This document shows positions 1,635 through 25,006 of a DNA stretch of 64,000 nucleotides, in pieces (positions within the stretch are counted from its first letter, which is position 1; each line of letters opens with the position of its first letter). A program made the position numbers and the translations under genes. Source of the stretch: an uncultured Drancourtella sp. Lineage in GTDB: Bacteria > Bacillota > Clostridia > Lachnospirales > Lachnospiraceae. The DNA is taken from contig CALFLL010000020.1 in the NCBI GenBank assembly GCA_937880845.1, positions 24,350-88,349 of the forward strand. The letters run 5' to 3'. The notes below the pieces were generated by a model. It was given only the letters and a program-made list of their open reading frames with translations, did not search any database and was not told the DNA's origin.

Positions 1635-1650
1635 TATAAATAAAAGAAAA

Positions 1651-1686
1651 AATCTCTATTCGAGTGATCGGATAGAGATTTTTTTG
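1651..1686 (+). terminator. intrinsic terminator after metG
   Basis: 9-bp stem AATCTCTAT/ATAGAGATT with a 12-nt loop, followed by TTTTTG. Confidence 0.8.
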
Positions 1687-1738: not shown

Positions 1739-1767
1739 TTGTCCATTTTTTATAATAAGAATATAAT
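1739..1767 (+). promoter_or_regulatory. sigma-A-type promoter for the symporter/thiol-redox operon
   Basis: TTGTCC, a 17-nt spacer, then TATAAT (1762-1767), about 60 nt upstream of ATG 1827. Confidence 0.5.
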
Positions 1768-1826: not shown

Positions 1827-3197
1827 ATGGATGCACTTCTGAGTGTAAATTGGATTGCATTACTGGTACTTATTATTGCATTACTGATGTTTAAAACTTT
1901 GAACTGGATTGCATACAGGGTAAACTGGACATTGGTAATTTTAATCAGTATGGTCATGGGAGCAATTTTAGGTATTGTATTTGCATCAGAAAATAATTCC
2001 TATCTAACATGGCTGGATTTGATAGGAAGTATTTATGTCAATGTGATTACGGCCTTAGTGGCACCGGTTGTTTTGATTTCGGTTATTTCCGGTTTTATTT
2101 CTTTAAATGATAAAGAAAAAATGAAGAAAATAGGAGTAAAATCCGTGTTTTGGCTGATGGTTTCATCTGCGATAGCTATTGTGGTCAGCCTGTGTTTTGG
2201 AATGGTAACTCATATAGGAAATAATGCAGGAGCGGTATTTTCTGAAATTGGAAATGTGGCGGACAATACATTGGATGCATATAAAGAGATGAACACGACA
2301 TTTGATCAGATTTTATTGAATTTATTTCCTAAAAACGTTTTTGAGGATCTTGCATCTAACAATGTAGTTGCGATCATCATTATTGCGGTTGCAGTTGCGG
2401 TTGCTTATGTTAGCGTAGCATCAGAAGAAGGAGAAGAAAAAGTAAGATCTTTCAAATCTTTGATTGAGGCAATTAAAAAAATTATTTTCACGATTTTGGC
2501 TTATATTATTGATTTAACGCCATATGCAGTACTTTGTCTTGTAGCCGGTTCTGCAAGTCAGTTATTCAGTGATAAGGATGCATTAATCCAGCTGATTCTC
2601 CTTGTTGCATTGATCTATATTGTATGTCTGTTCCATACATATGGAATCAATGCAATCTTGCTGAAAGCATATGCGAAAATCAGTCCGCTTAAATTTTTTA
2701 AAAAAACATTTGATGCACAGGCGACAGCATTTACCACACAAAGTAGTGTGGGCTCCTTACCGATTACAATCGGAAGACTCACAAAAAAGGTAGGTGTGGA
2801 TGAAGAAGTAGCAAACTTTACAGCACCGCTTGGTACAACCATCGGTATGCCGGGATGTACTTGCATATGGACAATTTTACTTGCGCTATTTTATGTAAAT
2901 GCCATGGGAATACATTGGGGGATCAGTGACTATCTTGTTCTGTCTTTTATGGCATTGGTATTATCTATGGGAAGCGCAGGTGTGCCGGGGATCGGTGTTG
3001 TAACGGCCGTATCCTTATTTAGTGCGGTAAATCTTCCGGTTGCGGCAGTTGTACTTTTAATACCGATTAATAACATTACAGATATGGTACGGACACTTAC
3101 AAACGTAATGACTGCAAATGTTACGGCAGCCATTGTTGCGAGAAAAACAGATCTTTTAGATGATAAGATTTTTAATACAGAGGAGGAACATGTATGA
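1827..3197 (+). CDS. dicarboxylate/amino acid:cation symporter (DAACS family), TcyP-like
   Basis: 456-aa polytopic membrane protein with SDF-family signatures (TTQSSVGSLPIT, GMPGCTCIW, SAGVPGIGVV). The extra N-terminal helix and the length resemble TcyP-type L-cystine symporters. The substrate assignment is inference only. Confidence 0.8.
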   Translation: MDALLSVNWIALLVLIIALLMFKTLNWIAYRVNWTLVILISMVMGAILGIVFASENNSYLTWLDLIGSIYVNVITALVAPVVLISVISGFISLNDKEKMKKIGVKSVFWLMVSSAIAIVVSLCFGMVTHIGNNAGAVFSEIGNVADNTLDAYKEMNTTFDQILLNLFPKNVFEDLASNNVVAIIIIAVAVAVAYVSVASEEGEEKVRSFKSLIEAIKKIIFTILAYIIDLTPYAVLCLVAGSASQLFSDKDALIQLILLVALIYIVCLFHTYGINAILLKAYAKISPLKFFKKTFDAQATAFTTQSSVGSLPITIGRLTKKVGVDEEVANFTAPLGTTIGMPGCTCIWTILLALFYVNAMGIHWGISDYLVLSFMALVLSMGSAGVPGIGVVTAVSLFSAVNLPVAAVVLLIPINNITDMVRTLTNVMTANVTAAIVARKTDLLDDKIFNTEEEHV

Positions 3198-3688
3198 AAA
3201 AGTCAACAATTATTTTAATTGGTGCGGCATTGCTTTGCTTGGTTCTTTCTGTATTTTCCGCAAAAAGTTCGGTGACAAGAACAATAGATGCTATTTCGGA
3301 TATCGGAAAAGTGGTTTACACAGAGGAATGCAAAGAAAAAATAGACCTTGCGGTTTCATATTATAACAAATTGGATCCTAACTTACATTTAAAAGAAAAG
3401 ATTACAAACAATGATGAATTTGAAAACGATAAAATAGAATATGCACGTCTGGCTATTAAAGCGGCAAAAGTAGCCGATGCCAGAAAAGTAGCAGAAGGTT
3501 ATTCTTCGGCAGATGTAAAAAAATATGTGACAGATGCCAGAAAAGTTCTGGAAGAATACCTGACAGAAAAGCAATATAGTCTTGTAGAAAATTATGTCGA
3601 TCTAACAGCGTTGGAAGCGGAATATTCATCCGATGGAGGAACAGGAAATGCCTCAGATGGTGAAGAGGTATCTATTCCGATGTGCTAA
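3194..3688 (+). CDS. signal-anchored/secreted hypothetical protein
   Basis: ATGA overlap with the symporter stop. N-terminal hydrophobic segment IILIGAALLCLVLSVFSA, then a charged helical region. The protein ends in ...SIPMC. No family recognised. Confidence 0.6.
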   Translation: MKKSTIILIGAALLCLVLSVFSAKSSVTRTIDAISDIGKVVYTEECKEKIDLAVSYYNKLDPNLHLKEKITNNDEFENDKIEYARLAIKAAKVADARKVAEGYSSADVKKYVTDARKVLEEYLTEKQYSLVENYVDLTALEAEYSSDGGTGNASDGEEVSIPMC

Positions 3689-3707
3689 CATGATAGAAAG
3701 GAGATCA

Positions 3708-5237
3708 ATGATGAAGAAAAAAATTCTTTCCGTAGTTCTCGTTTGTATGATGACAGTTGGATTGATGACCGGCTGCGGAAGCAGTAATACAGACAAAGAG
3801 AATCACAAAGAATCGGAAAAAGAAACATTCGGGAATGTAAAGGCCCAGCTTTCTTCTTTGGACTATGATTTTGAAAAGGAATATACCTATGGCGATTTTA
3901 ATGCACATTCTAATAGTGATAAAGAACGCCAGGATGGTATAGATACATTTAAGGAAAAAAAGGATATTGTATATCAGGATATTACATACGATCAATTAAT
4001 ATACTTGTTGCAGCAGGAAGGAAATTATATGATTCAGTTGACCGGTTCCTGGTGTCACAACAGCCGGGCAATGAGTCCTTCTGTGAATAAATACGCAAAA
4101 GAATATGGAGTTGATACCATTTATACATACGACTTTAATGTAAATAATGCAGAAGATGGCTCCCTGTTTGTGCGGATGACAAACGGAACAGATACAGCGG
4201 GAGCAAAGTATAATTATATGTATGGGGAGATGGTTACCAGATATTTGACAAATCTTAATGATTGGGTTGCCTACCCAAGCGACTCGGAATCGGCACTTTC
4301 CTATACAAATGCACAGGGAAAAGAAGTAACGGTTCCAAAATTACAGCAACCTTTTTTGTTCTTATATAATAAAGACAATAAGCTAGACAACAGCGGATCC
4401 GGTAACGGAAGTAAATCTTGTCCGATCGTGTATGCATTTGAAGAAATGGTAGAACGGGATTCCAAAGGAATCTATGTGAAAGAGAAAGATAAGGACGGAA
4501 ATGAAGTCGTCGACAAAAAAGGAAATCCTGTAAGGAAATATATCACGGATGAGTATAATAAAAGGTTAAAAAGCATTTTTGACTATATAAAAGAACATAA
4601 CATCCATGTTTCTCAATATCCAAAAGAAGAGTATGTAAGAGATGCTTTTAACAGCTATGGGAAAAAAATCTTTAATGAACAAGAGCAGATTAATCTTTAT
4701 CCGGTTACATATCGTGAACTGGAATGGCTGATGGGAGAGGACGGAAATTCTCTTATATTGATTGGCGGACCTGAAAATGAGGGAACAAGAGCGATTGCAT
4801 CTGTTTTAAATCAATATGCCGTACAGAACAATCTGAGAATTTACCTGTGTGATACAGAGATTGATGGAGGATATACAACAGATAAATGGGGATACACTCA
4901 ATCCACGAATATTCTTGATCCGGAATCTCCTCTTATTGATATGTATACAGATTTGTTGGATAAATATCTTACCAATCTTGAAGCTTCCCATTCGATGGAG
5001 GAAGGGGAACCTTTGATACAGACCCCGTATTTTATGGCATATAATAAAGATCATGAAGACGAAGACGGATTTATTGCACCTATTTCGGCGTACTGTGAAC
5101 TTCCGTATACATTAAATTCCGAAATGAGATATTATATTGGCAAAGAAAAAAATATGACTTCCTGTAAGAAAAATATTGTAACCGTATTAAATAGTTACGG
5201 CGAAAATACAGGGGTGCAAATAAAAGACATTCCATAA
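3708..5237 (+). CDS. lipoprotein with two thioredoxin-fold-like halves (CxxS in the first)
   Basis: The ORF-track start (3633) is trimmed to in-frame ATG 3708, preceded by AGGAG. Lipobox in MMKKKILSVVLVCMMTVGLMTG|C. The first half has LTGSWCHNS where Trx-fold proteins carry WCxxC. The second half has GGPENEGT at the equivalent position. Confidence 0.6.
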   Translation: MMKKKILSVVLVCMMTVGLMTGCGSSNTDKENHKESEKETFGNVKAQLSSLDYDFEKEYTYGDFNAHSNSDKERQDGIDTFKEKKDIVYQDITYDQLIYLLQQEGNYMIQLTGSWCHNSRAMSPSVNKYAKEYGVDTIYTYDFNVNNAEDGSLFVRMTNGTDTAGAKYNYMYGEMVTRYLTNLNDWVAYPSDSESALSYTNAQGKEVTVPKLQQPFLFLYNKDNKLDNSGSGNGSKSCPIVYAFEEMVERDSKGIYVKEKDKDGNEVVDKKGNPVRKYITDEYNKRLKSIFDYIKEHNIHVSQYPKEEYVRDAFNSYGKKIFNEQEQINLYPVTYRELEWLMGEDGNSLILIGGPENEGTRAIASVLNQYAVQNNLRIYLCDTEIDGGYTTDKWGYTQSTNILDPESPLIDMYTDLLDKYLTNLEASHSMEEGEPLIQTPYFMAYNKDHEDEDGFIAPISAYCELPYTLNSEMRYYIGKEKNMTSCKKNIVTVLNSYGENTGVQIKDIP

Positions 5238-5256
5238 CATTTAGGAAAAAGATAAA

Positions 5257-5772
5257 ATGAATCGAATGATTTTAAGCTTTATTATTGTTTTATGCCTGGG
5301 AATAAATGGGTGTGGAAAAAGTACAACGATATATCCGGAACTTTCTGAGGGAAGTAAAGCACCTGATTTTTCGGTAAGATTAAATAATAACACGATATTT
5401 ACGTTGTCGGAGAAAAAAGGAAAAGTAGTACTTTTGAATTTTTGGGCGACATGGTGTTCGGTATGTGTTGAAGAATTGTCCGTTTTGGAAAAACTTTATG
5501 AAAAATATCAAAATCAAGTTGAAATTATAGCTATTAACAGTGGAGAAGATAAAACAACGGTAAAATCTTTTTGTAAAGAAAAAGATTTTACCGTACCGAT
5601 AGGATATGATGAGAAAAACGAAATAGGAAAGAAATATCCATGTGATGGAATACCATATACTGTGATTATCGGAAAAAACGGTAAGGTTTGTGATGTGTTT
5701 ACAGGAGCAAAAGATGCAGAAAGTCAGTACAAGGAATATCGAAGAGCATTGAAAGAGGCGGTGGAACAGTGA
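5257..5772 (+). CDS. TlpA/ResA-family thiol-disulfide oxidoreductase lipoprotein
   Basis: Lipobox-like signal (LCLGING|C), active site LNFWATWCSVCVEE, and 171 aa is typical for AhpC-TSA/TlpA proteins. Confidence 0.85.
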   Translation: MNRMILSFIIVLCLGINGCGKSTTIYPELSEGSKAPDFSVRLNNNTIFTLSEKKGKVVLLNFWATWCSVCVEELSVLEKLYEKYQNQVEIIAINSGEDKTTVKSFCKEKDFTVPIGYDEKNEIGKKYPCDGIPYTVIIGKNGKVCDVFTGAKDAESQYKEYRRALKEAVEQ

Positions 5773-5912
5773 AAATAAGTTATAAATACATAAGAAAGGG
5801 AATTTTGATATCCGCTATTTTTATGTTGGTGATGGGAATCATCAGAAATGAGACAAGAGATGTTATAAACAAGTCGATACAAATTTGTTATGAGTGTATA
5901 GGTATAGGATAA
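5769..5912 (+). CDS. small membrane CXXC protein (CD1871A-family-like)
   Basis: Absent from the ORF track (<60 aa). GTG 5769 overlaps the TlpA-like stop (GTGA). TAA 5910-5912 overlaps the next ATG (TAATG). Translation is VKISYKYIRKGILISAIFMLVMGIIRNETRDVINKSIQICYECIGIG: one TM helix plus a C-terminal CxxCIGIG tail. The start codon is uncertain; the alternative ATG 5823 would cut the helix. Confidence 0.6.
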   Translation: MKISYKYIRKGILISAIFMLVMGIIRNETRDVINKSIQICYECIGIG

Positions 5913-6718
5913 TGAAAAAAAGAAAAATAATACAAAGTATCTGTACTGTTTTATATAATTGTTATCTTCCGGGATTTTTTAATGGACATATTTATAGAGG
6001 AAATTTTAAAGTAGGTTGTATTCCGGGGCTAAATTGCTATTCTTGTCCCGGAGCGGTTTCTTCTTGTCCGTTGGGAAGCCTTCAAGGAGCGTTAATATCT
6101 ATAAAATATAAATTTCCGTATTATGTATTGGGAATTCTGTTTTTATTTGGAGTTTTGTTTGGACGGATTGTATGTGGATTTCTTTGTCCGTTTGGACTGA
6201 TTCAGGAATTACTTTATAAAATCCCTTCGGTCAAAATAAAAAAAGGAAGATGGTCCACACTGCTTTCAAAAATAAAATATATGATTCTGCTTGTTTTTGT
6301 ACTCATATTTCCCGTTTTTTTTATGGCTCCTGGATTTTGTAAATATATTTGTCCGATCGGAACACTGGAAGCCGGTATCCCGCTTATTATAGTAAAAGAT
6401 GAACTGAAAGAACTGATCGGAGGATTGTTTGTATGGAAAGTAGTGGTTATGATCGTAATCTTAATGTCAGCCATAGTGATTTTTCGTAGCTTTTGTCGTT
6501 TCTTTTGTCCCTTAGGGGCATTTTATTCTTTTTTTCATAAAATTTCCTTTATAGGTATGGAGGTAAATGAAAAGAAATGTACGTCATGCAATGCCTGTGT
6601 GTCATACTGTAAAATGGATATTAAAAAGGTTGGAGATAAAGAATGTATTGGCTGTGGAGAATGTATGACTCAATGCCATGTATCGGCATTAAGATTTAGA
6701 AACGGCTTAAAAAAATAA
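5912..6718 (+). CDS. membrane 4Fe-4S polyferredoxin (NapH/MauN-like, COG0348-type)
   Basis: Start trimmed to ATG 5912 (MKKRKIIQ). Several TM helices with repeated CxxCP/CxxxCP motifs (CYSCPGAVSSCP, CGFLCPFG, CKYICPIG, CRFFCPLG). Two ferredoxin motifs at the C-terminus (CTSCNACVSYC, CIGCGECMTQC). Confidence 0.85.
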   Translation: MKKRKIIQSICTVLYNCYLPGFFNGHIYRGNFKVGCIPGLNCYSCPGAVSSCPLGSLQGALISIKYKFPYYVLGILFLFGVLFGRIVCGFLCPFGLIQELLYKIPSVKIKKGRWSTLLSKIKYMILLVFVLIFPVFFMAPGFCKYICPIGTLEAGIPLIIVKDELKELIGGLFVWKVVVMIVILMSAIVIFRSFCRFFCPLGAFYSFFHKISFIGMEVNEKKCTSCNACVSYCKMDIKKVGDKECIGCGECMTQCHVSALRFRNGLKK

Positions 6719-6720
6719 CA

Positions 6721-6752
6721 GGAGGGGCACAACAAAAATGTTGTGCCCCTCC
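6721..6752. terminator. bidirectional intrinsic terminator between convergent genes
   Basis: 13-bp GC-rich stem GGAGGGGCACAAC/GTTGTGCCCCTCC. There is an A-run upstream and a T-rich tract downstream, so it can serve both strands. Confidence 0.75.
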
Positions 6753-6759
6753 GATTTAT

Positions 6760-7053
6760 TTAGCTGAGTTCTACTTTTGAGGCTTCTTCTGGTTTGAATT
6801 CATTTTTCAAATCGTAAATGTTATGACCGGTAGATTCACTTAAAACACGTCCTTCTAAAGAATAGCAGCGGATAAAACGTTTTCCGTCTACGCTGGACCA
6901 ATGTTCTACGTCCCATGTCATGTATCCGTCTTCATCGGATTTCTTTTCTTTTAAATATAAGTCAACCTGACGTCCGCCCGGAGCCATCAGTTTGATCAGC
7001 TCATCAGTAGTAGCTGTGAGTTCTGTTTTGTTTACTTTATCATATACGTTCAT
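6760..7053 (-). CDS. hypothetical small acidic protein
   Basis: 97-aa ORF with a strong RBS (AGGAGGGG) upstream of the ATG and a terminator downstream. No family recognised. Confidence 0.55.
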   Translation of the reverse strand: MNVYDKVNKTELTATTDELIKLMAPGGRQVDLYLKEKKSDEDGYMTWDVEHWSSVDGKRFIRCYSLEGRVLSESTGHNIYDLKNEFKPEEASKVELS

Positions 7054-13732: not shown

Positions 13733-14581
13733 TTACAGGTGCGTAAGAATATAATAAATCCCACATAAAGTATCGATTCCGGAAGAATGACCGATTGCTT
13801 CAAAAGAAGAAAGGATTTCTGCTGCGGATTCTTTTAAAGGAAGTTCTTTTAATGGTTTGCTGAAGTGAGAGTTTAAAGCACAATCCAGAAAAGATTTGCT
13901 GATATCATTTGTATGGTCAAGTTTTCTTTGTATGGCTGTCCTTAAAGTACGGGCAAAGGGATGCTCGTATTGGTTTGCAAAAATGATTCCTGCAAGGACG
14001 CCGCAGAGAAAATCATCACCGCTTGGGGTAAGACCGATTCCAAGACCGATGAGAGAAACGAGTGCATCGGCGGCCTGATCAAAATGTCGGTTTTCTAGAT
14101 AAAAGTTACATTGTTTCAAACAGTTTTCGGCATAGGTATTGACGAGAAACTGGTCAGAACAAGTGTGATCCGTATCGGAAGAAAAAAGACAACGAAATCC
14201 TCCGGTATCAGAAAGAGAAAAAACGGATTTTAAAAGTTCACTATGAATACGGGGAAAATTGCCTGTAAGTGCAGAATCAAATATTTCTGCCGGATCATAG
14301 CAAAATCGATGAATACAATCCGGAGAACAGATCAAAAGTTCATGAGAATGTATTTCCACGTGCTGTCCCGGTTGCAGGTTTAGTTCAGACATTTCTTTGC
14401 CGGAAAGATTTGTGATCAGACTGAGGGGAGAAATCGGGGAAGCAGCAGCCTGTAAAGAAAGAAGGCGGCCGCCAAAAGTAAGGTTTATTGTTTTTCGATA
14501 TACGGAATGAATCTGACCGAATGTATTGGGACGAAGAAGCATAAGAGCATAAGATGCAATATTGGTAATGAGATGATCCAT
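13733..14581 (-). CDS. allH: DUF2877 protein, oxamate carbamoyltransferase subunit AllH (YlbF)-like
   Basis: Motifs recalled from YlbF/DUF2877: GQIHSVYRKTINL, GLGIGLTPSGDDFLCG, IGHSSGIDTLCG. The genomic context is the all genes. Confidence 0.7.
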   Translation of the reverse strand: MDHLITNIASYALMLLRPNTFGQIHSVYRKTINLTFGGRLLSLQAAASPISPLSLITNLSGKEMSELNLQPGQHVEIHSHELLICSPDCIHRFCYDPAEIFDSALTGNFPRIHSELLKSVFSLSDTGGFRCLFSSDTDHTCSDQFLVNTYAENCLKQCNFYLENRHFDQAADALVSLIGLGIGLTPSGDDFLCGVLAGIIFANQYEHPFARTLRTAIQRKLDHTNDISKSFLDCALNSHFSKPLKELPLKESAAEILSSFEAIGHSSGIDTLCGIYYILTHL

Positions 14582-14605
14582 GATAAATACCTCGCTGATA
14601 TATTT

Positions 14606-15451
14606 TTAATTTGTATGTGTATTTAAAAAGTCAAGAGTTTTTTCTAAAAGCTGCCGGGTAAAGCCATCTTCTGTGCTTCTGTCAAAATCGTGTGACTGAC
14701 AGGAAACAACAAACCGTTCGGCATTATATTTTTCACATAATGCCAAAAATTCAGAATATGGCACATCCGGATCGTTCGTGCTGTGGGCACAAAATAACGG
14801 GCACGGAAGGTTACCGCATGTCCGGAGAGAATAATCCAGAAAGAAGTATTTTTCACGTCCTTCATAAAGAAGCGACTTCCACAGACCGGTCTGACGTGCA
14901 TAAACGTAAATGCTGTAATGAGTATCCAGATTTCCTTCCGTATGGACATCGGAAGCAATATCCAAGCAGGAAGCAGAAACTTTTGGAAGTGTACAATAAT
15001 AACTGTTTGGGGAACAAAACCAGGTATCACATAAAAAACCATAGCCATAATATGATAAAAGTCCGTTCGGAACTTTGGCAAGGGAGGAGTGTCCGGAAGC
15101 AATCAGACATAAATATGCCCCTGCGGATCGACCCCACAAAAAGAACGGCAGTTCCGGAAGTGAATAAAAATCCGGATGAAGGATATAGTGGTTGATACAG
15201 AAGCTAACATGTTGCATGATTGTATCAAGCTTAGCGGCAGGAGCCAGAGGATAATCATAAGCTATGATTACATATCCGGCTTCGGTAAGGAATTTAAGAT
15301 GTAATTCGGGAAGATCCTTTCTGGAACCGTAGAGAAGACCGCCGCCGTGAAAATATAAAATACAGGCACGAGGATGTACGTTCGGATTCCGGTAAACCGT
15401 AATTTGAGTGGAAGAAGAATTCTCCCAAGAAAGATCTTTTTGCGTAAACAT
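14606..15451 (-). CDS. alpha/beta-fold esterase/lipase (HGGG, hormone-sensitive-lipase-like family)
   Basis: YFHGGGLLYG oxyanion motif and WGRSAGAY nucleophile elbow. It lies 24 nt upstream of the allH homolog on the same strand. Confidence 0.8.
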   Translation of the reverse strand: MFTQKDLSWENSSSTQITVYRNPNVHPRACILYFHGGGLLYGSRKDLPELHLKFLTEAGYVIIAYDYPLAPAAKLDTIMQHVSFCINHYILHPDFYSLPELPFFLWGRSAGAYLCLIASGHSSLAKVPNGLLSYYGYGFLCDTWFCSPNSYYCTLPKVSASCLDIASDVHTEGNLDTHYSIYVYARQTGLWKSLLYEGREKYFFLDYSLRTCGNLPCPLFCAHSTNDPDVPYSEFLALCEKYNAERFVVSCQSHDFDRSTEDGFTRQLLEKTLDFLNTHTN

Positions 15452-15517
15452 AATGATTTTCCTTTCTGTTAATTTGAAATACTGTTATTATAACACAGAA
15501 AAATGCTGTTAAATAAA

Positions 15518-15601
15518 AGACAAAGTAGAAAAAGTGGATAAAAAACAGGAAACTTTTTATCTTATATTACGATTGAAAAAAAAAGAGCAAACTGCCATAA
15601 T
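15518..15601 (+). promoter_or_regulatory. allE promoter (TTGAAA-17-CATAAT) with upstream operator-like element; paralog of 16545-16629
   Basis: AGACAAAGT-N3-AAAAGTGGATAAAAAA, then 25 nt, then GATTGAAAAA(-35), 17 nt, and CATAAT. The same architecture and spacing recur upstream of allD. Confidence 0.55.
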
Positions 15602-15650
15602 AACAATATGTTTCTTTTGGTAAAAGATAAACGGAAAGCGAGGATAAATT

Positions 15651-16439
15651 ATGAGTTATTTAAATGGTCAGACAGGATGCCGTGAAGAGTTACTGAACAC
15701 AAGATCCATCATAAAAATGGGAAGCTATGTTGTGCTTGAACCGGACGGACTTGTAAAAAATGCAATACCGGGTTACACAAACTGTGATGTGACAATCCTT
15801 GGTTCTCCGGCTATGGGAGCGACTTTTGCGGATTATCTTGTTACGGTACATGAAGGAGGAAATAATCCTGCATTTGGAGGAGAAGGACTTGAAACTTTCA
15901 TTTATGTGGTAGAAGGAAGCATCAAAGTTAAAAATGCGGATCGTGAAGAAGTGTTGACAAAAGGCGGATATATCTATTCTCCTGTGAGCAATACGGTTGC
16001 ATTTGAAAATGCAGGAAGCGAAGATGCAACGTTGTTTGCATATAAACGTAGATATGAAGCGGTAGAAGGATACAGTGCACATACCGTGATCGGCAATGAT
16101 AATGATCTGCCGTGGATTCCATATGAAGGAATGGACAACTGTCATATCAAAGATTTCCTTCCGGCAGCGGGAGATTTTGGATTTGATATGAATTTCCATA
16201 TTTTGAGATTCAAAATGGGTGCATCTCATGGTTATATCGAAACACATGTTCAGCAGCACGGAATGTATTTCCTTTCCGGAAAAGCAATGTACAGAATCGG
16301 AGACGATTGGGTTCCGGTACAGAAAGGAGATTATGTGTTCATGCAGGCATATTGCCCGCAGGCATGCTACGGTGTAGGAAAAGGAGAAGATGTGACATAT
16401 ATTTACTCCAAAGACTGCAACAGAGATGTACAGTTATAA
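15651..16439 (+). CDS. allE: (S)-ureidoglycine aminohydrolase (bicupin)
   Basis: Collinear with E. coli AllE/YlbA as recalled (MSYLNGQTGCREELL..., GASHGYIETHVQQHG, YIYSKDCNRDV). 262 aa. Confidence 0.9.
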   Translation: MSYLNGQTGCREELLNTRSIIKMGSYVVLEPDGLVKNAIPGYTNCDVTILGSPAMGATFADYLVTVHEGGNNPAFGGEGLETFIYVVEGSIKVKNADREEVLTKGGYIYSPVSNTVAFENAGSEDATLFAYKRRYEAVEGYSAHTVIGNDNDLPWIPYEGMDNCHIKDFLPAAGDFGFDMNFHILRFKMGASHGYIETHVQQHGMYFLSGKAMYRIGDDWVPVQKGDYVFMQAYCPQACYGVGKGEDVTYIYSKDCNRDVQL

Positions 16440-16486
16440 AATTATATTAAGTTATCCCGTAAAATTGAAATAGATTTGTTTGCACA

Positions 16487-16524
16487 GAAACCGGCATTGT
16501 CAATAAGACAGTGCCGGTTTTCAT
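16487..16524 (+). terminator. intrinsic terminator after allE
   Basis: Stem AAACCGGCA/TGCCGGTTT followed by TTTTC. Confidence 0.7.
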
Positions 16525-16544
16525 ATACGGGAATGTGAAAAAAT

Positions 16545-16629
16545 AGACAAAGTGTGTAAAAGTAGATAAAAAATATAAATTGGTTTTTCTAGTTATTTGA
16601 TTGAAAAAATAACGGCAAATTGGGATAAT
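16545..16629 (+). promoter_or_regulatory. allD-operon promoter (TTGAAA-17-GATAAT) with upstream operator-like element; paralog of 15518-15601
   Basis: AGACAAAGT-N4-AAAAGTAGATAAAAAA, then 25 nt, then GATTGAAAAA(-35), 17 nt, and GATAAT. Confidence 0.55.
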
Positions 16630-16692
16630 AACATTATAAAACAAACTGGATGCAGTATATGAACTAAAAAAAGTGAAAGAGAGGAAACGGAA

Positions 16693-17745
16693 ATGAAGCT
16701 TTCAAGACAGGAACTGAAAGATTTAATGAAAAACAAACTGATGAGTGCGGGATTAAGCGAAGAACATGCTGATATTACAGCGGAAGTTCTGACATGGTCA
16801 GATGAGAGAGGATATCATTCTCACGGCGCGGTAAGAGTGGAATATTACAGTGAGCGAATTGCAAAAGGTGGAATTACAGTAAATCCTCATTTTGAATTTA
16901 AAGAAACAGGACCGTGTTCCGCAATTTTTGAAGGGGATAATGGCTGTGGATACGTGGCTGCAAAAAAGGCTATGGAAAAAGCAATCGAGATGGCAAAGAA
17001 AACAGGTATCGCAGTAGTAGGAATCCGAAATATTTCTCACAGCGGAGCACTTGGATACTATACAGAAATGGCTGCAGATCAGGATATGGTAGCAATTTCC
17101 TTCTGCCAGTCAGATCCGATGGCAGTTCCGACAGGAGGAACAGAACCATATTACGGAACAAACCCGATTTCTTTTGCGGCACCGACGGCAGATGAAAGAA
17201 AAGTTGTATTTGATATGGCTACAACCGTTCAGGCATGGGGTAAAATCCTGGATAAAAGATCAAGAGGAGAATCTATTCCGGATACATGGGCAGTAGATGA
17301 AAACGGAAATCCGGTAACAGACCCGAATAAGGTAAATGCACTTCTTCCGATCGCAGGGGCAAAAGGATACGGACTGATGATGATGGTGGATGTATTCTCG
17401 GGAATTCTTCTTGGAGTACCATTTGGTAAACATGTAAGCTCTATGTACCATGACTGTTCCAAAGGAAGAGAACTTGGACAGATGCATATCGTTATGGATC
17501 CGAACCGTTTTGTCGGAATTGAACAGTTCAAAAAAAATATGTCACAGACATGCGATGAGTTAAATGCAATGCCGACAGCAGAAGGCTATGACAAAGTATA
17601 CTATCCGGGTGAAAGAGCTGTTCTCAGAAGAGAAAAAGCATACGAAACAGGCGGAGTTGAAATTGTAGATTCTATTTATGAATATCTCAAGAGCGATGCA
17701 ATTCATTTTGACAGATACGATCATAAGAACAGATTCGCAGAATAG
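16693..17745 (+). CDS. allD: ureidoglycolate dehydrogenase (Ldh_2 family)
   Basis: 350-aa malate/L-lactate dehydrogenase type-2 fold (ERGYHSHGAVRVEYY, NISHSGALGYY). Context and length match E. coli AllD. Confidence 0.85.
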   Translation: MKLSRQELKDLMKNKLMSAGLSEEHADITAEVLTWSDERGYHSHGAVRVEYYSERIAKGGITVNPHFEFKETGPCSAIFEGDNGCGYVAAKKAMEKAIEMAKKTGIAVVGIRNISHSGALGYYTEMAADQDMVAISFCQSDPMAVPTGGTEPYYGTNPISFAAPTADERKVVFDMATTVQAWGKILDKRSRGESIPDTWAVDENGNPVTDPNKVNALLPIAGAKGYGLMMMVDVFSGILLGVPFGKHVSSMYHDCSKGRELGQMHIVMDPNRFVGIEQFKKNMSQTCDELNAMPTAEGYDKVYYPGERAVLRREKAYETGGVEIVDSIYEYLKSDAIHFDRYDHKNRFAE

Positions 17746-17756
17746 GAGTGAACAAG

Positions 17757-20700
17757 ATGTTAAGAACAGTAGTAAAAAAAGGCAGCTATCATGATTCGGT
17801 TGTCCTGATGCTTCTTACAAACCAGATCTCTACGATCGAAGGTGTAAAAAAAGTATCTATCATGATGGCAACACCTGCAAATAAAGATATTTTCAAACAA
17901 AGTGGATTGGATACAGAAGAACTGATGGAAGCAACGGCAAATGACATGGTTGTTGTAGCTGACATTGATGATGACAGTCTGTTAGACACAATTATGGAAG
18001 AAGTGGAAGAATTCTTCAAAAAACAATCTGCTTCCAACGGAGAAAAGAAAGGAACAGAAAGTGTAAAATCATGGGACAAGGCTCTGGAAAAACTTCCAGA
18101 TGCGAACCTTGCGGTAATCTCCATTCCGGGAGCATATGCAGCTCTTGAAGCAGACAGAGCACTGGACGAAGGAATGAATGTTTTTATGTTCAGTGATAAC
18201 GTTACGATTGAAGATGAAAAAAAATTAAAAGAAAAAGCACATAAAAAAGGTCTGGCAGTAATGGGACCGGACTGTGGAACAGGAATCATCCAGGGGGTTC
18301 CGATCGCTTTTACAAACAGCGTAACACCTGGTTCTATCGGCATCATCGGAGCATCCGGAACAGGTATCCAGGAGCTTACAACAATCATTGACCGTCTTGG
18401 CGAAGGTGTAAAAAATGCCATCGGAACAGGCGGACGTGATCTGTCAACAGAAGTAGGCGGAATCACAATGATGGATATGATCGATGCGATGGAAGATGAT
18501 GATACAATCAAAGTAATGATCGTTATTTCCAAGCCGCCGGCACAGGAAGTAAGAGAAAAAATCTCTGCAAGACTGAGTGTATGCAAAAAACCGGTCATTA
18601 GTTTATTCCTCGGAGAAAAACCGGAATATCATGAAGAAAACTTCTATCACACCTATACACTTGATGAAGCGGCAAGACTTGCAGTAAGCCTTGTACGAGG
18701 GGAAAAAGTAAATGAAGGAGAAGTAAAGACAGACAGATCCGAATTCTATCCGGCTGAAGCAAAGAAGACGATCAAAGCTTACTATTCAGGCGGTACACTG
18801 GCAGGAGAAGCTGCTATGCTCATTAAAGATGCACTGGCATTAAAGATCCCGCCGCAGAAGGCAGAAGGATTTATGCTGAAAACAGACGGTCATATCGTTG
18901 TGGATCTTGGAGATGATGTGTATACACAGGGCAAACCGCATCCGATGATTGATCCTGCAAAACGAATCGAATGTATGCAGGAAGCAGTAGATGATGAATC
19001 TACAGGGGTTATCTTATTTGATATCATGCTTGGTTACGGTTCTCATGCAGATATGGCGGGAGCACTTCTTCCTACAATTAAAGAATTACAGGAAAAAGCA
19101 CAGGCACAGGGCAGAAAGGTATTTTTTGTATCTACTGTCTGTGGTACAAGAAGAGACTATCAGGGATATGATGAAGCAGTAAATAAACTAAAAGAAGCAG
19201 GCGTTATCGTATGCGAAACAAACAAACTGGCAGTACGTACGGCAATTCAGGCAATCGGTCTGGATTTTGAAGAAACAGAAAAAGAAATCCGTCCAAAGCA
19301 GCCGTCTGATGCAGCAGCACATAAAGCTTCCGAAAAGCTCCTTCAGATGCTTTCCGAAAAACCGAAGGTAATCAATCTTGGACTTAGAAGCTTTGCAGAA
19401 GTAGCAGAGCAGTTTGGATGTGAAGTGGTTCAATACGACTGGAATCCACCGGCAGGCGGAAACATGGAAATGATCAAGATGCTGAATTTCCTCAGAAATT
19501 ACGAAGGATTTGATATTGATGAGGCAAACAGAAAAGTAATCGGAAAAATCGTTGCAAGCCAGCCTGTCATCAAAGACAATGTACGTGCAAAAGATGTTAT
19601 TCCGGAATTAAACGAAGGAAAAGTCATTCTTCATGCAGGTCCTCCGATCCAGTATAAAGATATGCCGGATCCGGTACAGGGATCTTGTGTTGGCGCCGTA
19701 TTGTTCGAGGAATGGGCAGATAATGAAGCAGACGCAAGAAAGCTTTTGGAGTCAGGAGAAGTAAAATTCATTCCATGTCACCATGTAAAAGCAGTCGGTC
19801 CAATGGGAGGAATCACATCTCCGAATATGGCGGTTTTTGTTGTTGAAAATACAACAGACGGCAATGAAGCATATTGTACAATGAATGAAGGTATCGGAAA
19901 GGTACTTCGTTTTGGGGCATATTCCGAAGAAGTTGTGGAAAGACTTCGTTGGATGAGAGATATCCTTGGACCTACATTAGGAAAAGCAATCCGTGAACTT
20001 GGCGGGATTAACGTAAATCCACTTATTGCAAAAGCAATCGCAATGGGTGACGAATTCCACCAGAGAAATATTGCGGCATCCCTTGCATTTTTAAAAGAAG
20101 TTGCACCGGTCATAACAAAGATGGACATGGACGATAAGGACCGTTATAATGTAATCAAGTTCTTATCCGACACAGATCAGTTTTTCCTTAATATTATGAT
20201 GGCGACAGCCAAGGCTGTAATGGATGGTGCACGTACTTTGACAGAAGGAACAATCGTAACTGCCATGTGTAGAAACGGTGTGGAATTCGGTATCCGTATT
20301 GCAGGTATGGGAGATGAATGGTTCACAGGACCGGTAAATACTCCGCAGGGACTGTATTTTACAGGATACGACGGGGAAGATGCATGTCCGGATATGGGAG
20401 ACAGTGCGATTACGGAAACGTTTGGTGTAGGCGGTATGGCAATGATCGCGGCACCGGCTGTTACAAGGTTCGTAGGGGCAGGCGGATATGAAGATGCTCT
20501 TCGTACAAGTACTGAAATGACAGAAATCACGATTGACAGAAATCCGAACTTTATCATTCCGAACTGGAATTTCCAGGGAATCTGTCTGGGAATTGATGCA
20601 AGACTTGTTGTAGAAAAAGGAATCACTCCGGTCATTAACACAGGTATTGCACATAAAATCGCAGGTTACGGACAGATTGGTGCAGGTACGGTTCATCCTC

Positions 20701-20762
20701 CGATTGAATGTTTTGAAAAAGCAGTTGCCGCATATGCGAAGAAACTTGGCTTTACTTCTTAA
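17757..20762 (+). CDS. allFG: fused FdrA-like (AllF) + DUF1116/YlbE-like (AllG) protein, oxamate carbamoyltransferase large component
   Basis: The N-terminal ~590 aa are collinear with E. coli FdrA (KKGSYHDSVVLMLL, MGPDCGTGII, GASGTGIQE, VINLGLRSFAE...YDWNPPAGGN). The C-terminal ~410 aa are collinear with YlbE (ELNEGKVILHAGPP, FIPCHHVKAVGPMGGITS, MGDEFHQRNIA, GDSAITETFGVGG). Start set to ATG 17757 (AGGAG 8 nt upstream); GTG 17748 is also possible. Confidence 0.9.
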   Translation: MLRTVVKKGSYHDSVVLMLLTNQISTIEGVKKVSIMMATPANKDIFKQSGLDTEELMEATANDMVVVADIDDDSLLDTIMEEVEEFFKKQSASNGEKKGTESVKSWDKALEKLPDANLAVISIPGAYAALEADRALDEGMNVFMFSDNVTIEDEKKLKEKAHKKGLAVMGPDCGTGIIQGVPIAFTNSVTPGSIGIIGASGTGIQELTTIIDRLGEGVKNAIGTGGRDLSTEVGGITMMDMIDAMEDDDTIKVMIVISKPPAQEVREKISARLSVCKKPVISLFLGEKPEYHEENFYHTYTLDEAARLAVSLVRGEKVNEGEVKTDRSEFYPAEAKKTIKAYYSGGTLAGEAAMLIKDALALKIPPQKAEGFMLKTDGHIVVDLGDDVYTQGKPHPMIDPAKRIECMQEAVDDESTGVILFDIMLGYGSHADMAGALLPTIKELQEKAQAQGRKVFFVSTVCGTRRDYQGYDEAVNKLKEAGVIVCETNKLAVRTAIQAIGLDFEETEKEIRPKQPSDAAAHKASEKLLQMLSEKPKVINLGLRSFAEVAEQFGCEVVQYDWNPPAGGNMEMIKMLNFLRNYEGFDIDEANRKVIGKIVASQPVIKDNVRAKDVIPELNEGKVILHAGPPIQYKDMPDPVQGSCVGAVLFEEWADNEADARKLLESGEVKFIPCHHVKAVGPMGGITSPNMAVFVVENTTDGNEAYCTMNEGIGKVLRFGAYSEEVVERLRWMRDILGPTLGKAIRELGGINVNPLIAKAIAMGDEFHQRNIAASLAFLKEVAPVITKMDMDDKDRYNVIKFLSDTDQFFLNIMMATAKAVMDGARTLTEGTIVTAMCRNGVEFGIRIAGMGDEWFTGPVNTPQGLYFTGYDGEDACPDMGDSAITETFGVGGMAMIAAPAVTRFVGAGGYEDALRTSTEMTEITIDRNPNFIIPNWNFQGICLGIDARLVVEKGITPVINTGIAHKIAGYGQIGAGTVHPPIECFEKAVAAYAKKLGFTS

Positions 20763-20788
20763 AGCAAAGGCTGGAAAGGAGAAGGTCA

Positions 20789-21724
20789 ATGGAAAATAAA
20801 AAAATTGTAATTGCCTTGGGCGGAAATGCCCTTGGCAACGACGTAGAAGAACAAAAAGAAGCTGTGGCAAAGACAGCAAAAGTAATCGTAGATCTTGCTC
20901 AGCAGGGATACCGGCTGATTGTGACACACGGAAACGGACCACAGGTGGGGATGATCCAGAATGCGATGGACAATTTTGACAAAGACCTCGCTGCGTCTAA
21001 AAAAGTTCCGCTTCCAACCAGTGTGGCAATGAGTCAGGGATATATTGGTATTGATCTGCAAAATGCAATCAAATATGAACTTTACAAACGCAATATAGAC
21101 GGAAAAGTTTCTACAATTCTTTCACAGGTAGAAGTAGACGAAAACGATGAGGCTTTTAAACATCCGACAAAGCCAATCGGAGCATTTCTTACAAAAGAAG
21201 AGGCTGAGGAAAGAGAAGCAAACGGAGTAACATGTATGGAGGATGCAGGAAGAGGTTATCGTGTAGCTGTTGCATCTCCGATGCCAAAGAAAATCCGTGA
21301 ACTGGAAACCATACGCACTTTGATGAACGCAGGACATATCGTGATCACATGCGGAGGAGGCGGAATACCTGTTATCAATAAAGGCGGAAAGCTTGTTGGA
21401 GTAAACGCCGTTATTGATAAAGATAACGTAAGTAGCCTTCTGGCAACCCAGATTGGTGCGGATTATCTTGTTATTCTTACAGCAGTAGAAAAAGTGGCCA
21501 TCAATTTCGGAAAAGAAAATCAGGAATGGCTTTCCGATCTGACGGTTAAACAGGCAGAAACATACATTGCAGAAGAACAGTTTGCAAAAGGTTCCATGCT
21601 TCCTAAGATTGAAGCGGCCATTCGTTTTGCACAGTCAGGAGAAGGCAGAAAAACTCTGATCACACTGCTTGATAAGGCGGCAGACGGAATTGCAGGAAAA
21701 ACAGGAACGGTGATTCATAAATAG
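20789..21724 (+). CDS. arcC: carbamate kinase
   Basis: KIVIALGGNALG and THGNGPQVG motifs, 311 aa. It sits immediately after the oxamate carbamoyltransferase gene, as in E. coli (ybcF/allK). Confidence 0.9.
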   Translation: MENKKIVIALGGNALGNDVEEQKEAVAKTAKVIVDLAQQGYRLIVTHGNGPQVGMIQNAMDNFDKDLAASKKVPLPTSVAMSQGYIGIDLQNAIKYELYKRNIDGKVSTILSQVEVDENDEAFKHPTKPIGAFLTKEEAEEREANGVTCMEDAGRGYRVAVASPMPKKIRELETIRTLMNAGHIVITCGGGGIPVINKGGKLVGVNAVIDKDNVSSLLATQIGADYLVILTAVEKVAINFGKENQEWLSDLTVKQAETYIAEEQFAKGSMLPKIEAAIRFAQSGEGRKTLITLLDKAADGIAGKTGTVIHK

Positions 21725-21792
21725 CAAGAAGGAAACACAGAAGATGTGACACGGAAGAACGGTATTGAGAATACTTTTTGGGAGATGAAAAG

Positions 21793-23403
21793 ATGAATAT
21801 ACCGGTTAATGTGTTTATGTGGGGATTGGCAGTCCTGCCAATCATCGTATTATTGGTGCTGATGATCAAATGCCAGTGGGGAGCAACTGAGGCCGCACCC
21901 GTAGGTCTTATCCTTACCACTATCGTTGGTATGGTATTTTATAAAGCTGATCTGAAACTGATCGTTTCAGAAGGTGCAAAAGGAATCTGGAGTGCACTGA
22001 TCATATTGCTGATCGTATGGACGGCGATTTTGCTATATCAAGTAGGAGAAGAAGCCCGTGCGTTTCTTGTTATAAGAAACGGGATGAGAAAACTTCTTCC
22101 GAATGAATTATTACTTATATTGGCAATGGGATGGATATTTGAAAGTTTTCTTCAGGGAATTACCGGATTTGGTGTCCCTGTGGCAGTGGGAGCTCCGCTT
22201 TTAATGGGTATCGGAGTACACCCGCTATGGGCAGTTATCATCCCGTTGATCGGACAATCATGGGGAAATACATTTGGAACACTTGGGGCTGCATGGGACT
22301 CCCTTGTTATGATCGTGAACTTTGGTGTCGGAAGCACGGAGTATTTAAAAACAGCACTGTGGACGGCCACATTTCTGTGGTTCTGGAATGTTATCATCGG
22401 AGTATTTATATGCTGGTTTTATGGAAAATATAAAGCAGTAAAAAAAGGATTTTTGGCTGTGGTTATCCTCTCTTTCGTACAAGGAGGAGGAGAACTGTTG
22501 CTTACGCAGGTTAATACAACGATTTCCTGTTTTGTTCCGGCATGTATTTCTCTCATCATTATTCTTTTGCTTGGAAAAACGAAGCGGTATAAAGAGGAAT
22601 GGAAGATTCAGGATAGTGACATTATGAACCGAGCTTTTGAGAAAAAGGAAACAGAAGAACTGCCGAGAGGCATGACACTTGCCCAGGCTTTTGTACCGTA
22701 TTTCCTTTTATCAATCATTGCATTGGCTGCTCTTGTAATAAAACCGATAAATGAATTTCTTGGGCAATTTCAGATTGGCTTTGCTTTTCCCGAAACATCG
22801 ACAGGATATGGATATGTAAATACCGCAACGGAATGTTTTTCACCGTTTACTCCATTTACACATGCCAGTTTGTTCCTTTTGGTTTCTTCCGTTATCGGCC
22901 TTGTTTATTATAAAAAAAGAGGATGGATTCAATCAGGTGGTGCGAAACGTGTTTTTGTTAAATCTGTTTCCATGGCAATGCCTTCAGGAATTGCCGTGAT
23001 CGGACTTGTGATCATGTCGAAGATTATGAGTGGAACGGGACAGACGGTGGTTCTTGCAAACGGTATCGAAAAAGTCCTCGGAAAATTATATGTTGTTCTT
23101 GCTCCGTTTATCGGACTTCTGGGAACATTTATGACGGGAAGTAACATGAGCTCTAACATTTTGTTCGGCAGTTTTCAGATGACAACGGCAAATCTTCTCC
23201 ATGTTGATGCAGCTATGATTTTAGGCGCACAATCTGCGGGAGGAGCAATCGGAAGTGCGGTAAGTCCAAGCAACATCATTCTTGGTACGACAACGGCGGA
23301 TATTCTCGGAAACGAAGGAAAGGCCTTAAAGAAAATTCTGACGGTGACGGCACCGGTTACGATCATTATCGGAATCGTGATGTTTATACTGACGATGTTG
23401 TAA
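21793..23403 (+). CDS. L-lactate permease (LctP, TC 2.A.14) family transporter
   Basis: GITGFGVPVAVGAPLL and GLLGTFMTGSNMSSNILFG match LldP/GlcA motifs. Start trimmed to ATG 21793 (GGGAGA RBS). The substrate is unknown. Confidence 0.8.
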   Translation: MNIPVNVFMWGLAVLPIIVLLVLMIKCQWGATEAAPVGLILTTIVGMVFYKADLKLIVSEGAKGIWSALIILLIVWTAILLYQVGEEARAFLVIRNGMRKLLPNELLLILAMGWIFESFLQGITGFGVPVAVGAPLLMGIGVHPLWAVIIPLIGQSWGNTFGTLGAAWDSLVMIVNFGVGSTEYLKTALWTATFLWFWNVIIGVFICWFYGKYKAVKKGFLAVVILSFVQGGGELLLTQVNTTISCFVPACISLIIILLLGKTKRYKEEWKIQDSDIMNRAFEKKETEELPRGMTLAQAFVPYFLLSIIALAALVIKPINEFLGQFQIGFAFPETSTGYGYVNTATECFSPFTPFTHASLFLLVSSVIGLVYYKKRGWIQSGGAKRVFVKSVSMAMPSGIAVIGLVIMSKIMSGTGQTVVLANGIEKVLGKLYVVLAPFIGLLGTFMTGSNMSSNILFGSFQMTTANLLHVDAAMILGAQSAGGAIGSAVSPSNIILGTTTADILGNEGKALKKILTVTAPVTIIIGIVMFILTML

Positions 23404-23425
23404 AAGGAAAGGATGAGAGAATACC

Positions 23426-23629
23426 ATGGAAAAGAAAAAAATCTTTCAAACGGATGCAGGAAGGCTGATCATTGCATTTCTTGCCATTATGATGGCATTT
23501 GCAGTGATCATGATTGGACTATATACAGAAAATGAACTATGCTATCTGATCGGATTTTTGGTGATTGCGGCGGCAATGCTGTATTATCCGATTAAGGTAC
23601 ACATCTATGAACGACTCAGGAAAAATTGA
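23426..23629 (+). CDS. small two-TM membrane protein, hypothetical
   Basis: 67-aa ORF with two hydrophobic helices, packed between the permease and allC. Confidence 0.45.
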   Translation: MEKKKIFQTDAGRLIIAFLAIMMAFAVIMIGLYTENELCYLIGFLVIAAAMLYYPIKVHIYERLRKN

Positions 23630-23655
23630 TTAAATAAAAAGTGAGGAAAAGAAAT

Positions 23656-24903: not shown

Positions 24904-24917
24904 AGAAATCTAATCAA

Positions 24918-24955
24918 AACTACGCCGGTGGAAAATCCTATGGCGTAGTTTCCTT
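24918..24955 (+). terminator. intrinsic terminator after allC
   Basis: 10-bp stem AAACTACGCC/GGCGTAGTTT followed by a T-rich tail. Confidence 0.7.
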
Positions 24956-25006
24956 GTCTTGTGTTATACTATACTGTAAATACACTTATTATGATGATCA
25001 GAAAAG

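Follow-up and report, generated by a model that had tools for sequence, protein, structure and literature searches.

A two-module Lachnospiraceae operon that may link an iron-sulfur membrane protein to extracytoplasmic thiol chemistry and nutrient uptake

The operon and its two conserved modules

Positions 1827 to 6718 on the + strand of a 64,000-nucleotide (nt) stretch from an uncultured Drancourtella sp. (Lachnospiraceae; contig CALFLL010000020.1, positions 24,350 to 88,349; the whole 64-kb stretch is called the window here) carry six co-directional open reading frames (ORFs), g1 to g6. They encode a TcyP-like cation symporter, an anchored protein ending in cysteine, a putatively thioredoxin-like (Trx-like) duplicated lipoprotein, a TlpA/ResA-like probable lipoprotein, a small CXXC peptide of the CD1871A family, and a NapH-like polyferredoxin (Table 1). 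The genes are as tightly packed as a preliminary description of the letters alone had claimed. Read from the sequence, g1 and g2 overlap in ATGA (3194-3197), g4 and g5 in GTGA (5769-5772), and g5 and g6 in TAATG (5910-5914); the first two positions stand as originally given, and the third had been placed at 5912. Gaps of 19 nt separate g2 from g3 (3689-3707) and precede g4 (5238-5256), and fold analysis found no structure in either. The likely start of g3 is the ATG at 3708, behind AGGAGA at 3699-3704, the ORF itself opening at 3633. The operon is flanked by a strong terminator hairpin on either side, that of the upstream metG forming its 5′ boundary, and the terminator previously noted at 6721 is confirmed as a stable hairpin. 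The single promoter also described is plausible only: a candidate lies upstream of g1, and promoter-like matches across the region are not enriched (25 found versus 31 expected in shuffled sequence). No riboswitch, T-box, or S-box was found upstream of g1, and the sole Rfam match, to mir-786 at 6697-6773 (32 bits; gathering score 93), is a false positive that coincides with the downstream terminator hairpin. Pfam and NCBIfam profile searches bore out the gene identities first proposed. The analysis assigns the organism to Sellimonas: g1, g2, g4, and g6 each have an identical counterpart in "uncultured Sellimonas sp." whose NCBI name goes no further than the family (g4 is a TlpA disulfide reductase family protein). 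PGAP labels the TlpA, peptide, and polyferredoxin trio by family names alone, a cultured strain included.

Chance does not account for the six-gene arrangement, since many unrelated genomes show the same gene orders, and the operon is composed of two independently conserved modules, A (g1-g3) and B (g4-g6), that usually occur apart, rather than the one conserved unit that the six genes had been taken to be. One genome per GTDB species was scanned for relatives of the polyferredoxin, which are encoded in at least 596 species genomes; 80 loci were fetched and 85 examined altogether. A TlpA-like gene lies within 6 kb of the polyferredoxin gene in 80 of the 85 loci and a CD1871A-type peptide gene in 78, so that linkage in about 80 loci, together with frequent fusions, supports the earlier view of the polyferredoxin, CXXC peptide, and TlpA-like protein as a unit. 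Homologs of g1, g2, and g3 were found near a polyferredoxin gene in just one further locus, that of Lachnoclostridium sp. An181. Clustering of the ORFs flanking 83 module B loci revealed no recurrent client beyond generic ABC-transporter and response-regulator families.

Module A was followed in a redundant sample of 80 metagenome loci around g3; g3 has 279 homologs, and g2 has 220 matches, many of which are repeats within surface proteins. An SDF-family symporter gene and g2 lie directly upstream of g3 in all 55 loci with enough flanking sequence, and the SDF-g2-g3 order is found without module B in several lineages. Module B comes after g3 in 13 of 54 loci, which stand for about four lineages when L009/L174 is counted, across which g3 identity is 75%, 67%, 62%, and 45% and the flanking genes differ (metG in the window, an ATP synthase operon in L174). 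A separate arrangement occurs in L110 (4726-5823, − strand), where a gene for a g4-like TlpA lipoprotein (WCSNC) and one for a 107-residue glutaredoxin/NrdH-like protein (CPDC) are divergent from the module A SDF gene, and no polyferredoxin gene lies within 8 kb. In Peptacetobacter (L001, 6035-7237), the SDF gene found upstream of module B belongs to another DAACS subfamily (47 bits against g1) and was set aside as a coincidence.

Cultured carriers of module B include Clostridium tetanomorphum, C. tagluense, Enterocloster hominis, and Peptoclostridium acidaminophilum. In P. acidaminophilum DSM 3953 it is located on an 808-kb plasmid (L177, NZ_CP007453.1, 781399-784479), with a gene for a major facilitator superfamily transporter inserted between the TlpA and peptide genes, and the C. 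difficile namesake region CD18710 is tabulated as a conjugative transposon (PMC12772354). Because of this plasmid location and that listing, module B may be mobile.

Proteins of modules B and A

The g6 protein is a polyferredoxin of four predicted transmembrane (TM) helices that scores below the cut-offs of the NapH/MauN model TIGR02163 (74.8 bits; cut-off 213.05) and the NapH equivalog NF007013 (58.6 bits; cut-off 234). All 19 of its cysteines are invariant across 23 homologs: C17, C36, C42, C45, C52, C88, C92, C143, C147, C195, C199, and those of two C-terminal CxxCxxCxxxC motifs. NapH itself has four TM helices and both termini in the cytoplasm. In a MAFFT alignment with the E. coli protein, both NapH CX3CP motifs correspond to g6 C88/C92 and C195/C199, and the CxxCxxCxxxC motifs match too. 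An 11-residue insert specific to g6, NCYSCPGAVSSC, falls in the loop opposite the CX3CP pairs, and the g6 motif FCKYICP (C143x3C147P), in place of LIWEWINP in NapH, is found in the second loop on that opposite, outer side.

In many Oscillospiraceae and other Eubacteriales, a TlpA domain is fused to the C terminus of the polyferredoxin. A database search returned thousands of relatives, of which the best 120 are all TlpA fusions. In 114 of these, a single predicted TM helix separates the last ferredoxin motif from the Trx CxxC. Unfused TlpA homologs bear export or lipoprotein leaders. The single intervening helix and the leaders on free TlpA proteins together place the Trx domain outside and the ferredoxin domain inside. 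Three unambiguous TM helices precede the ferredoxin domain of g6, and the loop of residues 99-124 has seven lysine or arginine residues (K/R). Counting back through these helices from the inner ferredoxin domain, and from the K/R-rich loop, we predict that C88/C92 and C195/C199 are at cytoplasmic helix ends, that loop 99-124 is cytoplasmic, and that the C36-C52 loop and C143/C147 are extracytoplasmic. Some fusions (P0260-P0378; for example P0262, 709 residues) have two tandem redoxin domains and are 660-740 residues long, and some give weak SCO1-SenC or fn3_PAP matches.

An AlphaFold2 model of a fused homolog, built from 105 sequences, has a predicted local distance difference test (pLDDT) score of 75 and a predicted template modeling (pTM) score of 0.64; confidence is high in the membrane core and the Trx domain. 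Using Foldseek, the Trx domain matched ResA, TlpA, and Etrx1/2 with target-normalized TM-scores of 0.8-0.88, and the membrane part had no match in the PDB. A search of PDB sequences with g6 detected generic ferredoxin motifs only.

The TlpA/ResA-like g4 protein scores 120.7 bits against the ResA model, for which the cut-off is 170; its StoA, DsbE, and TlpA equivalog scores are all below cut-off, and it matches the MauD model weakly (6.2e-6). It has a hydrophobic N-terminal leader with ...LGINGC, which predicts anchoring on the outer face. The dipeptide within the CXXC of module B Trx proteins is variable, the WCxxC motif itself being kept. We considered whether TlpA proteins associated with module A have a distinct dipeptide, and rejected the idea since the motifs vary (CSVC, CSPC, CGPC, CSNC, and CNPC) and form no clear subclass. 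NCBIfam NF040920 (CD1871A_fam), for which the cut-off is 32 bits, matches residues 12-47 of the g5 peptide at 50.2 bits (E = 1.6e-13), and 78 loci share the tail of the peptide, G-x-x-x-G-G-x-x-D-V-L-x-K-A-I-x-I-C-x-E-C-I-G-[IL]-G-COOH, with almost no variation. The predicted topology of g5 is N terminus in and C terminus out. An odd number of TM helices is found in 68 of 77 CD1871A-domain proteins, and their K/R residues number 768 across the membrane from the CXXC tail versus 299 on the tail side, which fits an outward-facing tail. Topology and charge analysis therefore predict outward-facing cysteines in both polyferredoxin and peptide, in keeping with the preliminary reading. At 29 of 83 loci, of the Oscillospiraceae type, the CD1871A tail ends not a 45-residue peptide but a protein of three to five TM helices and about 285 residues, likewise encoded directly upstream of the polyferredoxin gene (for example L040, 7112-7966, and L036, 7089-7943).

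Reduced surface thiol proteins of strict anaerobes are usually credited to CcdA/DsbD drawing on cytoplasmic thioredoxin. We detected no DsbD/CcdA membrane domain in the operon, which agrees with the preliminary description, nor in the 64-kb window or any of the 85 module B loci. A phmmer search with E. coli DsbD matched only the Trx domain of g4 in the window (E = 0.0047) and only TlpA ORFs in related loci.

In module A, g1 is a full-length DAACS protein that, compared with E. coli proteins by phmmer, scores 149.6 bits with TcyP, to which it aligns end to end, 105.6 with GltP, and 86.2 with DctA. The g2 protein consists of an anchor, a helical stalk domain, an acidic low-complexity tail, and a C-terminal cysteine. 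No Pfam or NCBIfam profile matched it, and the terminal cysteine is invariant in all 39 small homologs (...EEIELC or ...SIPMC). The helical domain (residues ~25-146) is an unnamed repeat with no Pfam model that is found in up to 16 copies in giant surface proteins bearing SLH or Flg_new domains (P0380, 2214 residues; P0394, 596 residues).

The two halves of g3 are homologous (hhalign probability 99.9%, E = 4e-34), which upholds the duplication implied by the earlier label of a tandem Trx-fold lipoprotein with WCHNS. The family consensus has WCxNT/S in each half, with only the first cysteine invariant (C117 in A2 numbering); the g3 of the window keeps WCHNS in the first half only and has GGPENEGTRA in the second where homologs have WCxNT. 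The WC region aligned with the TlpA profile at 86.7% over 35 columns (hhalign), the g3 profile matched thioredoxins weakly among PDB sequences (E = 0.012), and the similarity to PedC_BrcD (TIGR01295; 22.8 bits, cut-off 120) is local, around the WC motif. Because its similarity is confined to the strand-WC-helix region, g3 is likely, although not proven, to be Trx-like.

Genes for cysteine and methionine metabolism adjoin module A in three lineages. The neighbors of module A include Cys_Met_Meta_PP and aminotransferase genes in L088 and L089, with Rrf2 and LysR regulators in L088, and a ThiS/ThiF/JAB/TusA/thioredoxin sulfur-carrier cluster in L176 and partly in L088. With TcyP as the best E. 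coli match of g1, these neighbors make plausible the proposed link to sulfur amino acids, and module A looks like a thiol-assisted uptake system for a sulfur amino acid. Elsewhere in the window, a 97-residue gene converges on the operon terminator, and positions 13733-26692 hold a purine/allantoin-oxamate catabolism cluster (Table 1).

Table 1. Features of the window (positions counted from its first letter; aa, amino acids)
Feature	Position	Strand	Evidence or remark
g1, DAACS/SDF cation symporter, 456 aa, TcyP-like (module A)	1827..3197	+	Pfam SDF 2e-94, residues 38-439
g2, N-terminally anchored protein, 164 aa, ends ...SIPMC (module A)	3194..3688	+	one predicted TM helix, residues 5-23, 2 K/R before
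g3, lipoprotein of two homologous, probably Trx-like halves, 509 aa (module A)	3708..5237	+	lipobox LMTGC, motif WCHNS
g4, TlpA/ResA-like thiol-disulfide oxidoreductase, WCSVC, probable lipoprotein (module B)	5257..5772	+	Redoxin 3.6e-27, Thioredoxin_8 1.2e-20
g5, single-TM peptide, 47 aa, ends ...ICYECIGIG, CD1871A family (module B)	5769..5912	+	NCBIfam NF040920
g6, NapH-like 4-TM polyferredoxin (module B)	5912..6718	+	Fer4_5 7e-19
Terminator hairpin of upstream metG, 5′ boundary of the unit	1646..1685	+	-21.5 kcal/mol, z = -6.85, T-run after
Sigma-70-like promoter candidate, TTGTCC-17-TATAAT	1739..1767	+	consensus match only, 10/12 positions
Bidirectional terminator hairpin, common to operon and convergent 97-aa gene	6721..6752		14 base pairs, -28.8 kcal/mol, z = -7.63
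97-aa gene	6760-7053	-	no family match
AllH-like gene (allantoin-oxamate cluster)	13733-14581	-	
Ldh_2 gene (allantoin-oxamate cluster)	16693-17745		
CoA-ligase/AllG fusion, 1004 aa (allantoin-oxamate cluster)	17748-20762		
Amino-acid (carbamate) kinase (allantoin-oxamate cluster)	20789-21724		
Lactate-permease-family transporter and M20 peptidase (allantoin-oxamate cluster)			
PucR regulator (allantoin-oxamate cluster)	25007-26692		

Proposed electron route and competing explanations

We propose that module B is an Fe-S-driven transmembrane reductase that serves module A, a thiol-based nutrient uptake system, and we put the probability of this reading at roughly one half. Module B would be a CcdA/DsbD-independent route by which reducing power crosses the membrane. 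The two [4Fe-4S] clusters in the cytoplasmic C-terminal domain of g6 would be loaded by a donor inside the cell, probably reduced ferredoxin or a comparable carrier; electrons would then cross the four-helix module of g6 from the inner CX3CP pairs C88/C92 and C195/C199 to the outer cysteines C36, C42, C45, C52, and C143/C147, and pass to the outward CXXC of g5, the WCxxC of g4, and finally client disulfides. The CX3CP cysteines could be redox-active disulfides, as in DsbD, or ligands of a further cofactor. Outer-face Fe-S clusters seem unlikely because g6 has no Tat signal, and we therefore favor a cascade of thiol-disulfide exchanges that Fe-S chemistry like that of ferredoxin:thioredoxin reductase would prime.

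Module A would be the client of module B in this organism. The terminal cysteine of g2, at the end of a flexible acidic arm, and the WCHNS cysteine of g3 would each capture or release a disulfide-bound sulfur nutrient, perhaps cystine or mixed disulfides of cysteine, and they would do so through mixed disulfides only, because each protein offers a single reactive cysteine. The g2 arm or g3 would attack cystine or a cysteine mixed disulfide, cysteine would be set free beside the symporter, and the TlpA-like protein would resolve the resulting g2-g3 or protein-cysteine disulfide. Both the substrate and this order of steps are guesses, to which the TcyP-like transporter and the sulfur-metabolism neighbors lend support. 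Coupling of the modules is suggested by the recurrence of all six genes in about four lineages despite g3 identities of 45%-75% and differing flanks, and by the g4-like TlpA gene divergent from module A in another lineage (L110). A stronger formulation, in which module B is a third class of transmembrane disulfide reductase beside DsbD and CcdA, uses ferredoxin-level electrons to reduce surface thioredoxins of many Clostridia and other anaerobes, and in Sellimonas and its relatives drives a "fishing-arm" device with which g2 and the monothiol g3 would draw cysteine from extracellular disulfides for the symporter, is one that we offer tentatively, as a possibility with the odds somewhat against it.

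Several observations weigh against the proposal that B serves A. The N-terminal helix of g6 (TM0) is weakly hydrophobic. The AlphaFold2 model of g6 itself, from an alignment of 23 sequences, was poor (pLDDT 43.8), and the outer Cys loop of the fused-homolog model has a pLDDT below 50. The role of the CX3CP motif is unknown even in NapH, NosR, and RdhC (PMC5928378). A ccdA gene could also lie elsewhere in the genome, beyond the window. In module A, identity between g1 and TcyP is low (25%), other DAACS proteins score nearly level with TcyP for the g1 ortholog of the close relative L087, and the similarity of g3 to thioredoxin and TlpA extends over only ~35 columns. Module B mostly has no module A nearby, and 41 of the 54 module A loci have no adjacent module B; because the two are usually apart, their coupling may be optional or coincidental. 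In L087, a gene 84% identical to the 97-residue gene of the window directly follows g3 and module B is missing, a gene order from which module B appears to act as a cassette that is inserted or lost.

These last observations are also the case for the alternative that survives best, in which A and B are adjacent yet independent, B being a general envelope thiol reductase with roles such as repair of oxidized surface proteins, supply of Msr-type enzymes, or oxidative-stress defense, and A a self-contained nutrient uptake system. The presence of B in hundreds of species with otherwise variable neighbors and no A nearby fits such independence. We nevertheless consider it unlikely, since A and B recur together behind a 19-nt gap in about four lineages of varied context, with g3 as little as 45% identical, a g4-like TlpA gene stands beside module A in a further lineage, and the single-cysteine proteins g2 and g3 would need an external reductant for their recycling.

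Module B could instead be a respiratory or electron-sink device that places electrons from quinol or ferredoxin onto external disulfides such as cystine, cysteine uptake being a by-product. One description treats NapH-like modules as modular transmembrane units that transfer electrons for reductases outside the cytosol (PMC8238504), and NapH is regarded as a quinol-oxidizing subunit (PMC5928378). The operon also includes a transporter for the likely product; however, no energy-coupling or quinone-related genes recur beside module B in 83 loci. TlpA-type proteins are, moreover, reductants of protein disulfides and not high-flux terminal reductases, and an electron sink seems improbable to us.

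Still less probable is a role in metal handling, in which g6 would reduce cupric or ferric ions in the manner of CcoG, and its partners, the CXXC peptide and the TlpA-like protein, would bind metal or reduce a chaperone. Cupric reductase activity has been reported for CcoG, a polyferredoxin of the Fer4_5 type, and the copper chaperone ScoI is reduced by TlpA; PDB entries 4txo and 4txv are among the structural matches, a copper-type P-ATPase gene lies ~3.6 kb downstream in 3 of 83 loci, and the weak SCO1-SenC matches of some fusions point the same way. However, no consistent recurrence of a metal transporter or chaperone is found across those 83 loci, the hosts are strictly anaerobic with no heme-copper oxidase genes seen nearby, the Trx domain retains a classical WCxxC and a ResA-like fold, and the partners in this operon are thiol proteins and an amino-acid symporter. 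The reverse direction, with the TlpA-like protein, peptide, and polyferredoxin forming external disulfides and sending electrons inward as a DsbA/DsbB analog for anaerobes, is scarcely credible: the CXXC dipeptide does vary (CSVC, CGPC, CSNC, and CNPC), as in families of tuned redox potential, and g3 weakly resembles disulfide isomerases of the PedC/BrcD type, but the nearest counterparts of the Trx domain, by sequence as well as by structure, are the reductants ResA, TlpA, and Etrx, and thiols (about -200 to -300 mV) would have to donate electrons uphill to low-potential [4Fe-4S] clusters.

Module B has a substantial chance of being a transmembrane disulfide reductase of a genuinely new class. 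A conserved and often fused trio links an Fe-S membrane protein directly with an exported thioredoxin-like protein in hundreds of gut and environmental species. If the proposal that module B reduces external disulfides is correct, it would constitute a new way to move reducing power across a membrane, provide the puzzling CX3CP motifs of the NapH/NosR/RdhC superfamily with a function, and explain CD1871A, a micro-protein family that has been named but not assigned a function; module A would represent a new means by which accessory proteins assist a secondary transporter, and one way for gut Lachnospiraceae to obtain sulfur.

Relation to known systems

We found no characterization of module A or B in the literature searched, the coverage of which was incomplete, with most subscription journals outside it; the earlier statement that no characterized system has this composition holds to that extent. 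The mau cluster is comparable in that a TlpA-like protein (MauD) and NapG/NapH-like ferredoxins (MauM/MauN) are encoded in one gene cluster. It differs in that the operon has no methylamine dehydrogenase, MauE, or MauM, and g4 and g6 score below the MauD and NapH/MauN cut-offs. To our knowledge, a direct electron path from MauN to MauD has not been established.

Ferredoxin:thioredoxin reductase and heterodisulfide reductase share with the proposed mechanism the use of a [4Fe-4S] cluster to couple one-electron donors to two-electron disulfide reduction, and can be likened to module B through conserved Cys-Pro-rich motifs by the disulfide, a likeness proposed for the chemistry and not for the sequences. 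They are soluble or cytoplasmic enzymes, whereas the acceptor of module B would be across the membrane. Methanosarcina MdrA was considered as an Fe-S analog of DsbD and dropped, as its description presents it as a disulfide reductase of the carboxymuconolactone-decarboxylase family. For module A, the nearest known counterparts are the TcyP (YdjN/YhcL) cystine:cation symporters: g1 is a full-length DAACS protein with orthologs beside cysteine and methionine metabolism genes, although known TcyP proteins act alone and g1 is always trailed by the two single-cysteine extracytoplasmic proteins g2 and g3 (55 of 55 loci).

The membrane hardware of module B resembles that of the NapH, NosR, and RdhC (PceC) modules of PF12801, which have in common four TM helices with two CX3CP motifs (PMC5928378) lying on the cytoplasmic side. 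NapH and NosR also share with g6 a C-terminal domain with two [4Fe-4S] motifs. On its predicted outer face, g6 carries two additions to this module, a Cys-rich insert and a third CX3CP motif, and it is partnered by a Trx-like protein and a CXXC peptide rather than NapG/NapC, FMN-binding domains, NosZ, or dehalogenases. No NapG, NapA, NapC, or mau genes are found in the operon, and none recur beside module B in 83 loci. A 2021 survey viewed NapH-like modules as units feeding extracytosolic redox partners and tied them to FMN-binding partners, thioredoxin-like partners being tied to DsbD only (PMC8238504).

With the CcdA/DsbD relays to TlpA, ResA, and Etrx proteins, module B shares a membrane-tethered outer WCxxC protein that would need cytoplasmic reducing power, and its Trx fold matches those of ResA, TlpA, and Etrx1/2. 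The conserved Cys-Pro motifs at the membrane helix ends of g6 recall the Cys/Pro motifs of DsbD. Unlike those relays, module B has as its membrane partner an Fe-S protein with two [4Fe-4S] motifs together with a separate CXXC peptide, for which one would expect a one-electron donor such as ferredoxin in place of thioredoxin. As it has no DsbD domain and its NapH/MauN and ResA scores are below cut-off, module B is, as judged from its protein sequences, a member of neither family, resembling CcdA/DsbD-TlpA in its probable purpose and NapH/NosR/RdhC in its membrane hardware.

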